From Candidatus Dadabacteria bacterium (GTDB lineage: Bacteria; Desulfobacterota_D; UBA1144; Nemesobacterales; CSP1-2): DNA of 64,000 nucleotides. A program made the translations under genes and the position numbers. Under the pieces are notes generated by a model. The model saw only the letters and a program-made list of their open reading frames with translations. It had not been told where the DNA came from and ran no database searches. The stretch's first letter is position 1; every line of letters begins with the position of its first letter. This document shows, piece by piece, positions 55,157 through 60,858 of this stretch. The stretch spans positions 864,001 through 928,000 of the forward strand of contig CAWDVW010000005.1 in the NCBI GenBank assembly GCA_963805855.1, read 5' to 3'.

Positions 55157-57464
<2,308 letters not shown>

Positions 57465-57609
57465 TTCAAAGGTTATGATTCACAGACACAGTTACTGGGG
57501 ATCCAGATTTTAAAGAAGTAATTGTACCCGACTAATGAATTCGGTAATTGCTATTATGCACACATGTCTATGTTTACTGACTGGATGAGTTTGAAGGGAG
57601 ATATTTAAA

Positions 57610-58014
57610 TTGGCAGACACACTAAATCTCAGGGTGATCACCCCTTCAAAGCTGGTAATAGATGAAGAGGTGGATGAGGTTGTTGCCCCTGGTGATTCAG
57701 GGGAGTTCGGAGTACTCCCAGGACACTGTCCTTTTATAACCACACTGATGCCAGGGGAGCTTACCTACAAAATTAATGGAGCGGGAAAATCTATGATCAT
57801 TGACAGTGGAATAGCAGAGGTATCAGACGATAGGGTCAATGTGTTAACAGATAATGTCTTAAAATCCGAAGAAATCGATCCCGAGGCGGCAAGAAGAGAA
57901 GCCGAATCCATTTTAGAGGAACTCAAAGACTTTGGTGGTGGCAATAAGGAATTCAAGGAGATAGAAAGAAGGCTGAAATTAGCAGAGGTGAAGGCAAACG
58001 TCAAGAGAGCCTAA
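57610..58014 (+). CDS. atpC: ATP synthase F1 subunit epsilon
   Basis: LRVITP, GEFGVLPGH. Confidence 0.95.
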   Translation: MADTLNLRVITPSKLVIDEEVDEVVAPGDSGEFGVLPGHCPFITTLMPGELTYKINGAGKSMIIDSGIAEVSDDRVNVLTDNVLKSEEIDPEAARREAESILEELKDFGGGNKEFKEIERRLKLAEVKANVKRA

Positions 58015-58124
58015 GAATCAACCCCCCTAACGCCCGAGGATATACGCCCTCTTTTAAGAAATGGGAGTTTTGAAAAAATAGTCTATCTGTTGAAATGCCG
58101 CTTCTAGCTATTTCTGATGCTGGG

Positions 58125-58913
58125 CTATCCCAAGGATCCCTTGTCGACCCACACACGGGTAACCTTAATCTGCCGTATTAGTGGTTTAATCATGGATACA
58201 AGGAAAAGTGTAAATTCTTTCTCAGCCCTTATTAAGTTGGCTCTTGGAGGAAAGTGCTCTTTCCTTAGGACTCGGGTTATCTCTCGCAATTTCTTCTCAG
58301 AATAATAGCCATTTTCTCTAAGAACTGATTGTATTTGTTTCTTTGTAGCCTTCTGAGCATCACAGTGTGTGGGAAAAGCCTCTAAGAACTGCAGAGACAC
58401 AATACAAGATATATCATTGAATAGATTGAGGGCCTGTGGAAAATATTGTCGCAGAGAATCTCTGAGCTGATTCGATAGTTTCGTCTTAAGTTCAACGAGT
58501 GATTCTCTATCCCTTAGAACGATTCCGAGCTCTTGGGTGAGTTGATCGTCTGCAGTGACTGCATTCAAAGTACTTATGTCTGTGCGCAAGACATTTGCTA
58601 TAACAAATGCGTCGAAACTATCGCTTTTTACACCTGAAGTCTTATACCTCTTTCTGAACTTATCCATAGAGTTGGAATTTATTAGATAGACCTTGTAGTC
58701 GTAGCTGATTAAAAAGTCTATAACCCTTTGATTAGAGGTCTCAATGGCGAAGATGATCTCGTGCTCTTTACACAGGTGACGAATAGTGGAAAGGGCATAC
58801 ATGAAGCCATCGAGATCATTGTTGATTACAAAATCTTTAATCGGATTACCTTTGTCATCTATGATGAACAAAGTTAATTGCTCCCAAGACCAGTCAATAC
58901 CACAGTAAAGCAT
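58125..58913 (-). pseudogene. IS110-family recombinase/transposase, C-terminally truncated
   Basis: DEDD RuvC-like residues in GIDWS, FAIE and KSDSFD; L..LRDR..L....T...NQLR..L..YFP coiled coil; resemblance ends at about QIK (~58162) and the C-terminal Tnp domain is absent; AAGGAGG RBS. Confidence 0.88.
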
Positions 58914-58949
58914 ATCTATGCCTCCTTATTAATTAGATTTTAAATGACC

Positions 58950-59090
58950 TCGATGCTCTGTTATTCTTATATGGGTTCTCCAGGAACGTAACACTATGGA
59001 ACTTAGAGCATGATTAGCTTGGAGAGGGACATAACTACCCAAAGTGGTCAGGCCACAAGCCCACCAGGGTCCTCTCTCCAAGTTGGTCTT
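58950..59090 (-). ncRNA. Predicted IS110 bridge RNA (target-binding loop followed by donor-binding loop)
   Basis: Two stem/internal-loop/stem hairpins (59018-59082 and 58953-59011); loop segments match the element's left junction (59057-59067 = 59108-59118; 58966-58973 is the reverse complement of 59103-59110). Ends approximate. Confidence 0.8.
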
Positions 59091-59095
59091 TGGGA

Positions 59096-59104
59096 AGCAT
59101 AACA
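59096..59104 (-). promoter_or_regulatory. Extended -10 element (TGnTATGCT) just inside the IS110 left end
   Basis: Minus strand TGTTATGCT, hexamer 7 nt from the core and upstream of the predicted RNA; no -35 in the linear form. Confidence 0.55.
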
Positions 59105-59108
59105 TATA

Positions 59109-59132
59109 AGCCCACCAGTCTTGCTGGTGGGT
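59109..59132. repeat. REP-like palindrome interrupted by the IS110 insertion
   Basis: CCCACCAG-TCTTG-CTGGTGGG perfect 8-bp stem abutting the core. Confidence 0.7.
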
Positions 59133-59162
59133 ATAAAGGGTATTGAGTACTATCACATAGAT

Positions 59163-59308
59163 GTAGTGGAGAACTCCAGTCCTCCAAAAACGACGACCAA
59201 AAGGTCGCCGATGCATTTGGACTAGATTTAATCGGGACTGGAAAGTCCCGACTATCCATGATAAATAATATTGTCATCAATTACGATAGGCGGGGTTTTC
59301 CAACCCGG
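59163..59308. repeat. Cluster of GTAG/GATAG-footed REP-like hairpins
   Basis: GTAG-TGGAGAACT-CC-AGTCCTCCA (59163-59186); TCGGGACT-GGAA-AGTCCCGA-CTATC (59232-59256); GATAG-GCGGGGTT-TTCC-AACCCGG (59285-59308). Confidence 0.6.
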
Positions 59309-59507
59309 TATCGACAAAACATTTGGAATTGGAAACCTGAATGTTTACACAGCAATTACGGTAAACCATCAGTCCCTGTCCTGGGCCGTTGCACAGGGCT
59401 TACGACAGGCTTAGGCGAAGGGTTGCTGGTGGGATGATCTATGGTCACGAGCAAGCCTGTCCTTGTATATTAATAAGTGGATCGTGACGACCTAACCAGT
59501 CAAAAAT

Positions 59508-60858
59508 TCACATGAGGTTATAATAGTCGAGCCCAAGGTGGGTAATTAACTCCTCGCCCTTGAGATAGCGGAGGGTATTTTTTAACTTCATGAGCTGTAT
59601 AAACAGGTCATGCTCGGGATAGAGGTTTTCCCCGACCATAGGACTCTTGAAATAAAAAGAGAGCCATTCCTGAATGCCGTATAAATACGCTCTTTGAGCA
59701 AGATCCATAAAGAGCACTAAATCAAGGACTATAGGGGCAGCGAGGATACTGTCACGACAAAGAAAATTGACCTTAATCTGCATTGGATACCCAAGCCATC
59801 CAAATATATCTATATTATCCCAAGCCTCTTTCTCGTCGCCTCTCGGCGGATAGTAATTGATTCTTACCTTATGGTAGTAGTCTGAATACAGATCAGGGTA
59901 TAATTCCGGTTGAAGAATGTACTCTAGTACACCCAGTTTGCTGACCTCTTTAGTCTTAAATGAGTAGGGATCATCGAGAACCTCACCGTCTCTATTTCCG
60001 AGTATATTGGTTGAAAACCAACCGTTAACGCCTATCATTCTACTCTTGAGCCCTGGTGCCAAGATCGTCTTCATTAGAGTTTGGCCTGTTTTGAAGTCCT
60101 TGCCAGCTATAGGAACCTTCTTTACTTTTGCAAGCTCAATCAGCGCCGGTATGTCCGCCGAAAGGTTTGGAGCCCCATTTGCATATGGCACGCCACTTTT
60201 TATTGCCGCGTATGCATAAATCATGCTAGGGGCTATATGCGGATGATTATCCTTTAACCCCATTTCAAAACTCCTGATAGATTGATGAACCGCAGAAGAC
60301 TCAATATATGTTTCGGTGCTACCACACCATACCATTACCATCCGATCGAGCTTATTCAGCTTACTAAAATTTGATATATCTTCTATGATTTGTTCGGCAA
60401 GATCCATTTTGGTCTTCCCCTTCTTTAAGTTCTTGCCGTTGAGTCTCTTAACAAACTTCTTATCGAACACTGCCGGCATAGGCTCAATATCCTCTAGAAC
60501 TGCTCGCAAGTCATCTAGAAGGCCCGACCTCAAGCACGCCCGCTTTAATTGCTGCTTCGTATATGTTGTCGTTGAATATGTCCCATCCACCGAATGCTAT
60601 ATTAGATATATCTGCTAAAGGGATGAATTCTTTGATGAGAGGAACCTTCCTTTCAGTCCTCTTACCGAGTCTTATCGTTCCTAATTGAGTGAGTGAACCT
60701 ATTGGCTTTCCAATTCCCCTTTTTATTGCTTCAATCCCGGCAATAAAGGTAGTACTTACAGCACCACCCATACCGGGGAGCAAAACCCCGAGTCTCCCAT
60801 TGGGAGAGCCAATGACCTTTTTCTTCTTAAGTCTGGTATTCCGGCTTTTGGTTGGCAA
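59508..60858 (-). CDS. ino1: myo-inositol-1-phosphate synthase, single-base frameshift at ~60522-60530
   Basis: GMGGAVSTT and FGGWD in the first ORF; WCGSTE, NGAPN, GKDFKTGQT, NILGNRDG, CRDSILAAP, SFYFKSP in the second; deleting one G joins them. Confidence 0.88.

Follow-up and report, generated by a model that had tools for sequence, protein, structure and literature searches.

A probable partial IS110-group element with a predicted bridge RNA in the genome of an uncultured salt-marsh bacterium

Bridge-RNA systems and the locus in the window

Earlier work on the class of bridge-RNA recombinases reportedly includes that of Hiraizumi et al. in 2024. The class has been known since that year (Durrant et al. 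2024, PMC11208160), and the element described here is a further example of it. In IS621, the left target and left donor guides (LTG and LDG) pair with the bottom DNA strand; the top strand is bound by the right target and right donor guides (RTG and RDG), and each of the four pairings includes the core (PMC11208160). The circular forms of IS110 elements carry a promoter that is formed across the circle junction, while the RNA is encoded in the long left end; bridge RNAs were predicted for 85.7% of the IS110-group elements in ISfinder, and REP-like repeats are the classic target type of these elements (PMC11208160). In addition, two further reports describe partial circles with one canonical donor end, together with reinserted fragments and their matching empty sites (10.64898/2026.08.14.744561), and half-match recombination (10.64898/2026.08.31.748434).

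The window analysed here, that is, the whole stretch of 64,000 nt of genomic DNA, contains on its minus strand, in this order, a GC-rich hairpin, a CT dinucleotide, TATATG, two hairpins with internal loops, a ribosome-binding site and an ORF (58913–58125). The 948-bp segment between 59108 and 58161 is very probably a partial copy of an IS110-group element that encodes a bridge RNA, with four guides matching the insertion site and the element's own ends; the predicted bridge RNA gene is complete in it. The neighbouring genes, atpC on the plus strand and that for inositol-1-phosphate synthase on the minus strand, place the element in a convergent intergenic region, which is rich in hairpin repeats. 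The features of the locus are as follows:

57610–58014, plus strand: atpC, the neighbouring gene, accompanied by atpG and atpD
58125–58913, minus strand: truncated recombinase ORF of 262 aa, residues 1–251 as in the intact 409-aa protein, followed by an unrelated tail
58156–58160, minus strand: right target (RT) ACCCG, abutting the insert; the empty-site joint in runs X1 and X2 goes from 58160 to 59109
58161–58162, minus strand: TT, the last two bases of the insert, where the intact copy has an internal CT
59096–59101, minus strand: -10-like hexamer TATGCT, 17 nt after the right-end TTGACA in the circular form (counted spacing)
59103–59108, minus strand: right donor (RD) TATATG, with which the left end of the element opens; the right loop of hairpin B contains core plus RD in reverse-complement form
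59109–59110, minus strand: CT core, left copy; the identity between the two element copies and the free sites stops here, and the empty-site joint is at 59109
59118–59111, minus strand: left target (LT), the 3′ arm of the REP-like hairpin
59111–59131, minus strand: REP-like host-repeat hairpin CCCACCAG-caaga-CTGGTGGG, also listed as terminator-like
59508–60590, minus strand: gene for inositol-1-phosphate synthase

The element resembles IS621 (from E. coli, IS110 group; 8wt6 and others) in that the long left end contains the RNA and is followed by the gene for a recombinase with DEDD and Transposase_20 domains. The loop that binds the target precedes the one that binds the donor, the left guides being copies of the top strand and the right guides its complement. 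A CT core, a REP-type target and a putative promoter split across the circle junction, here counted from the sequence, are also common to both. Unlike in IS621, no 5′ stem-loop precedes the target loop, and a 4-bp closing helix brackets the two hairpins. There is hardly any right end: the last codons and the stop serve as the -35 box and also begin the left donor. The protein is only distantly related to that of IS621 (phmmer finds the C-terminal domain alone, E 3e-7) and is longer, with 409 aa versus the 328 of the solved IS621 chain; the left target match, when set beside that of IS621, covers 10 nt including the core. The element is a natural bridge system in which recombinase, RNA, a 14–17-bp target and donor are all specified, from a lineage far from that of IS621, and its compact RNA of about 143 nt, which lacks the 5′ stem-loop, could be an orthogonal candidate for bridge editing.

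Fold and guides of the predicted bridge RNA

The bridge RNA region corresponds to approximately the first 160 nt of the element, and the predicted RNA is about 143 nt in length. Its parts, all on the minus strand, are:

58946–59088: predicted bridge RNA body, two hairpins inside a closing helix, supported by covariation
59088–59085 (GACC) with 58949–58946 (GGTC): closing helix (helix 1), 95.7% of the cells paired and both-side changes in two of the four pairs
59018–59082: target-binding hairpin (A), formed by helices 2 and 3
59082–59069 with 59030–59018: outer stem of hairpin A, with one bulged A
59068–59057, 59056–59044 and 59043–59031: left loop, inner stem-loop and right loop of hairpin A
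58953–59011: donor-binding hairpin (B), formed by helices 4 and 5
59011–59005 with 58959–58953: outer stem of hairpin B
59004–58988, 58987–58975 and 58974–58960: left loop, inner stem-loop and right loop of hairpin B
LTG: 5′ loop strand of hairpin A (59068–59057), CTGGTGGGCT(T), with CTGGTGGGCT at 59067–59058, equal to the left target plus the core over 10–11 nt
RTG: 3′ loop strand of hairpin A (59043–59031), with TGGGTAG at 59041–59035, the reverse complement of CT-ACCCA (7 nt)
LDG: 5′ loop strand of hairpin B (59004–58988), with CATAGTGTTAC at 58998–58988, the same 11 nt as the element's right end together with the first base of the core
RDG: 3′ loop strand of hairpin B (58974–58960), with CATATAAG at 58973–58966, the reverse complement of CT-TATATG (8 nt)

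The presence of two hairpins with internal loops on the minus strand (59082–58953) had been proposed in an earlier, sequence-only reading of this DNA, and each of the stems, loops and repeats listed there lies at the position it was given. The check by folding, which that reading also suggested, had a mixed outcome: both hairpins are in the sequence and the fold covaries, but the folding energy is ordinary and the minimum-energy fold draws the loop of hairpin A differently. With a z of -0.78, and 41 of 200 shuffled sequences folding equally well, the energy of the single sequence is unremarkable, and the fold therefore rests on covariation and not on energy. A search of positions 57000–60500 with the Rfam covariance models, accepting E values up to 10, returned only unrelated families (E 3.9 and 6.1).

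The relatives used to examine covariation came mostly from metagenomes. A single protein query of the genome collection found one locus only, at 26% identity, and a phylum-wide genome search found, besides the genome's own two copies, only relatives with 28% identity or less, one of which (L014) was used, as a covariance-model hit. Protein relatives in metagenomes numbered 114 at E ≤1e-10, the closest being 93%, 70%, 68% and 66% identical, and the DNA of 80 metagenome loci was compared. The closest relative compared at the DNA level, L043 (67% amino-acid and about 70% nucleotide identity), keeps both hairpins, with two stem pairs changed compensatorily. A covariance model built from two sequences, those of this element and of L043, gave seven matches at E <0.001 among 88 sources, located upstream of recombinases that are 24–35% identical. 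In the seven-sequence alignment, 96.2% of the cells are paired and 26 of the 32 pairs show changes on both sides, values that are favoured by the alignment having been fitted to the structure of the model. None of 500 shuffles reached the observed result, and sliding the partner by 1–3 columns left 36–44% of the cells paired. The conservation of the two-loop fold, on which the sequence-only reading had made itself dependent, was thus observed: relatives keep the fold with compensatory changes.

All four loop strands have a match, and their order is the one that had been anticipated (LTG, RTG, LDG, RDG). The 11-nt direct repeat CTGGTGGGCTT is exact, at 59118–59108 and again at 59067–59057, as is the 8-nt inverted repeat formed by CATATAAG (58973–58966) and its reverse complement CTTATATG (59110–59103). 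The target is CTGGTGGG-CT-ACCC(A) and the donor is CATAGTGTTA-CT-TATATG. The 10-nt and 7-nt matches of the first loop agree with the free sites and with the empty allele, and the 11-nt and 8-nt matches of the second loop agree with the ends of the intact copy. Two of the initial assignments needed correction. The right target guide does contain the proposed ACCC, but it also takes in the core plus one more base (CTACCCA). As for the donor, initially given as CATAGTG-CT-TATATG, its CT-TATATG half stands, while the left half is really CATAGTGTTA, which abuts CT and is three bases longer. At 200000 random boundaries in the genome, taken as a chance control, an 11-nt direct copy within 160 nt was found in 126 cases, the following 8 nt recurred in inverted form in 785, and both repeats (the direct copy at 10 nt) were present in one. 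The control leaves aside the two guide matches to the other end of the element, which are additional.

The loops were also compared with the flanks of each relative, using fixed registers anchored at the conserved inner hairpin. Among 81 loci, 32 start with CT-TATAYRT, and the 49 without this motif were left out; removal of two loci lacking the N-terminus and of two with short flanks left 28, and excluding two duplicate left ends left 26. For these 26 distinct left ends, the LTG agreed with the element's own left flank at a mean of 6.23 of 9 positions, versus 3.68 of 9 for the flanks of the others. For the RTG, assayed in the 20 elements with a recognisable right end (TTGACA, 8 nt, CT), the values were 6.6 of 9 for the own right flank and 4.0 of 9 for those of others. 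In both cases none of 20000 permutations, which ignore the relatedness among elements, reached the observed sum. The loops therefore follow each element's own flanks (28 of the 81 loci), which is what the check proposed at the outset was to look for. This, together with the four guide matches and the covarying fold, supports the original assignment to the RNA-guided recombinases.

L043 illustrates this behaviour. The LTG of this relative is TGGAGCGGCT, in step with AGGAGCGG-CT in its own flank; CATAGTGATA is found in its LDG as well as at its right end, and its RDG and left end share one change (TATATAAG versus CT-TATATA). Donor guide and end change together in L074 as well. The agreement between the RTG of L043 and its own right flank is weaker, at 6 of 9 positions, and four relatives score 5 of 9 in the guide–flank match. 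Relatives L044–L098, from soil and sediment and about 35% identical, share with the present element the start of the left end (CT-TATAYRTTA), the right end (TTGACA, 8 nt, CT), the inner hairpins and the register of the guides. They differ in that their left ends carry two additional 5′ stem-loops and are some 40 nt longer, the left target guides usually have CA where the core has CT, and their targets are rich in T and C, as opposed to the foot of a GC hairpin targeted here. The right end TTGACA, 8 nt, CT was present in 21 of the 28 relatives examined. Distant relatives had no right end within 160 nt of the stop codon; theirs were located 200–960 nt downstream of it.

Intact copy, unoccupied targets and the origin of the truncated copy

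The genome contains a second copy of the element on contig C7, with 100% identity over 973 nt. This copy (locus L002) is 1432 bp long, encodes a 409-aa recombinase and provides the right end that is absent from the window copy. Its left junction reads CTGGTGGG-CT/TATATG, with the core at 1522–1523, and its right end TTGACA-TAGTGTTA-CT/ACCCATTT (2940–2959). The intact element has a 195-nt left end and practically no right end (7 nt after the stop codon), the final codons TTG ACA TAG (L002:2940–2955) doubling as a -35-like box and as the start of the left donor. An overlap of this type between stop codon, -35-like box and left donor is common to L043 and L044. The junctions are LT-CT-RD and LD-CT-RT, without terminal inverted repeats, and only the 2-bp core flanks the insertion. 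The boundaries of this copy bear on the sequence-only reading, which had singled out boundaries lying elsewhere in other copies as evidence against itself: the left boundary is shared, and the right end matches the two remaining loop strands.

The protein of the intact copy contains the domains PF01548 (E 3.3e-31) and PF02371 (Transposase_20, 62.6 bits), and reaches 171.8 bits against the NCBIfam model NF033542 ('IS110 family RNA-guided transposase'; cut-off 140). The S of its KSSG motif is nearly invariant across 41 relatives. In its domains, its serine and its long left and short right ends this copy conforms to the IS110 group, and the nearest solved structures are the ISCro4 and IS621 transposases. 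Residues 208–367 of the ORF (L002:1719–2945) also showed a weak match to the NCBIfam TIGR-Tas RNA-guided endonuclease model (28 bits, cut-off 100), which probably reflects no more than remote similarity. The C7 copy lies between two genes (L002:220–1347 and L002:3073–3942) whose products have long linkers of Pro-Thr repeats; one of these proteins bears a CxxCH haem-binding motif.

The 14-mer of the target, CTGGTGGGCTACCC, has five exact unoccupied copies in the genome (0.02 expected), and ten more copies with one mismatch (0.97 expected). The unoccupied sites, and likewise the empty allele seen at the locus in two public runs (see below), read exactly CTGGTGGG-CT-ACCC, so that the target claimed in the sequence-only reading, with its CT-ACCC, was correct. 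The same hairpin precedes four of the five exact free sites; these four are the 3′ end of a unit of about 60 nt that has GGGTAGG at its start and CTACCC at its end. This target-bearing unit is a REP-like repeat. As reported for ISPpu10 of Pseudomonas putida (10.64898/2026.03.19.712850), insertion is into an intergenic repeat that has a GC-rich stem-loop 5′ of the insertion point; in comparison with ISPpu10, the left target is here itself the 3′ arm of the hairpin. The target repeat was found in both a short-loop and a long-loop form. Several hairpin repeat modules are present at 59132–59507 of the window, including a terminator-like hairpin (59210–59191); the motif GGAAAACCCCGCC, found within these modules, occurs beside the metagenome relative L043 and the free site L004 as well.

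Two public DNA runs from salt marsh (X1 and X2) were compared with the window by aligning their Logan contigs to it. One contig in each run joins position 58160 to 59109, skipping 948 bp, and thus represents an empty allele; on the minus strand the joint reads CTGGTGGG-CT-ACCCG, the unoccupied target at the same locus. The shorter side of the joint measures 23 and 26 nt and lies within the repeat, while the other side extends over 138–261 nt of unique flank. Both runs also contain the continuation of the intact copy at 58163, and X2 contains in addition the left flank of the C7 copy. No contig bridging the truncated junction (58160–58163) was present among the X1 and X2 matches listed, so this junction is known from the assembly alone. 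A metatranscriptome run (X19) provided two 151-nt contigs with a depth of 2, both in the ORF and none on the guide RNA, a coverage that speaks neither for the bridge RNA nor against it. In run X20, whose label as RNA is a guess, a variant with three differences in 58895–59045 was seen, all of them outside the hairpins and too few to carry weight.

The ORF of the window copy has the DEDD_Tnp_IS110 domain only (PF01548, E 1.3e-31), lacking the C-terminal Transposase_20 (PF02371), and scores 76.7 bits against NF033542, below the cut-off of 140. The neighbouring gene had been taken for an IS110 recombinase, which holds for its N-terminal domain, but in the window the gene is cut after about residue 250. 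With a recombinase reduced to its DEDD domain and the right end missing, the window copy cannot act alone; it has neither the catalytic C-terminal domain nor the left donor, and is thus non-autonomous and probably immobile. The window copy and the C7 copy, which could supply the enzyme, have identical RNA genes, so that the window copy might at best contribute guides for the C7 recombinase. The 'intergenic' hairpins of this locus, together with its 262-aa ORF, are best annotated as a partial IS110 element with a guide RNA.

Identity to the intact copy stops at CAGATTAAGG (58163) and is followed by TT and then by ACCCG, which shows that the insert comprises exactly the initial 948 nt of the element, with LT-CT on one side and RT on the other. 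At its right junction the window copy has AAGG-TT-ACCCG; the sequence of the parent there is AAGG-CT-TACG, which places the breakpoint at an internal CT. Three explanations for this junction were considered and rejected. A core-to-core exchange predicts CT where the junction has TT, and neither a TTAC microhomology nor a variant target CT-TACCC, such as that at L004, reproduces AAGG-TT-ACCCG exactly.

The likeliest origin of the partial copy, at about even odds, is through the recombinase itself, either by reinsertion of a partial circle having only the right donor end, or by recombination in place between the internal site and the right junction; the two routes give the same product. The first route taken by itself is a tentative and rather unlikely proposal: a partial circle of 948 bp, with no more than the bridge RNA gene, the right donor end and half a recombinase gene, would have been mobilised by the intact copy in trans, only one donor half being recognised, and reinserted in nature. 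If it were true, the TT at the right junction would record the resolution of a mismatched or non-canonical core. The partial IS110 fragments described in 10.64898/2026.08.14.744561 are similar in having one canonical terminus (here the right donor), an internal end, a canonical target and a matching empty allele; compared with the partial circles reported there, the window copy is known from an integrated sequence, and its right junction has TT instead of CT. A single natural population, that of an uncultured salt-marsh bacterium, thus has the intact element, a partial copy, free targets and an empty allele at the same locus, a set of states that bears on how IS110 elements make and reinsert partial products.

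The main competing explanation accepts the bridge RNA gene as real and sees in the window copy a dead fossil, untranscribed and unused, truncated by an ordinary deletion unrelated to the recombinase. Its chances fall somewhat short of even. It fits the truncated recombinase, the loss of the right end and the absence of the circle-junction -35 box, as well as the TT found where core exchange would give CT; further, the internal endpoint agrees neither with the left donor guide (4 of 10 positions by eye) nor with the left target guide. An ordinary deletion does not account so readily for an outer endpoint situated exactly at the boundary between element and right target, for an insert bounded by LT-CT and RT, for an internal endpoint at a CT of the parent copy, or for an empty allele that is the exact target. 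The 100% identity to the intact copy over 973 nt indicates that the insert is recent, and similar partial fragments with one canonical end, reinserted beside empty sites, are described in 10.64898/2026.08.14.744561. As to silence, the RNA could still be transcribed by read-through, since the gene upstream has the same orientation.

It is improbable that the truncated copy is an assembly artefact, with the true locus being empty and the only real element being that on C7. The locus is indeed the empty allele in X1 and X2, and no contig covers 58160–58163 among the matches listed; against this, the interior of the element and the right flank share 5 nt at most, which is not enough for a misjoin in the graph, the contig around the copy measures 1.09 Mb, and the public runs contain up to 0.82 of the sampled words of the stretch. 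Even if it were an artefact, the identity of the RNA would not change, since the C7 copy has the same RNA sequence.

That the structure is instead a leader or end region of the transposase gene, serving translation control or as a protein-binding end, with loop matches that are non-guiding leftovers, either of a former target copy or of subterminal repeats inside the element, is hardly credible: the RNA does lie directly upstream of the ribosome-binding site and start codon of the recombinase ORF, a promoter-like site does overlap the 3′ side of hairpin B (the region holds two such sites, versus 1.7 expected) and X19 has no contig on the guide RNA, but an old copy of the target would explain one direct repeat at most, not four matches in canonical order and strand sense that flank two conserved inner hairpins on either side, and loops that vary with each element's flanks while the stems still pair would be left unexplained.

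Proposed mechanism and other IS110-family elements in the genome

For the partial IS110-group copy and its intact parent, a mechanism can be proposed by analogy with IS621. The element would excise as a circle, in which the junction between right and left ends, CATAGTGTTA-CT-TATATG, would bring TTGACA to 17 nt upstream of TATGCT. This layout was obtained by counting, and the positions of the hexamers are conserved in relatives; it suggests a putative promoter that would exist only at the junction of the circle. Once the element is integrated, target sequence takes the place of the -35 box, so the window copy may be silent. From the circle, the RNA would be transcribed starting at about 59089 and, as in IS621, would bind the DEDD/serine recombinase. 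One loop would then pair with the donor junction and the other with the foot of the repeat, holding donor circle and target together, and strand exchange would take place at the CT core. We infer transcription of the RNA, its binding by the recombinase and the guided recombination from this analogy.

The genome also contains a second, unrelated IS110-family element, present in three copies of about 1.44 kb that are 99.7–99.8% identical (L008:727–2164, L009:723–2168 and, on the reverse strand, L007). It has a short left end of some 84 nt and a long right end of about 290 nt, an IS1111-like layout in which, judging from the arrangement of the ends, the guide RNA would lie after the gene. Finally, locus L010 (G000:C2:80569–80820 match), which shows no DNA similarity to this three-copy element, contains a 360-aa IS110-family ORF with a match to Transposase_20.
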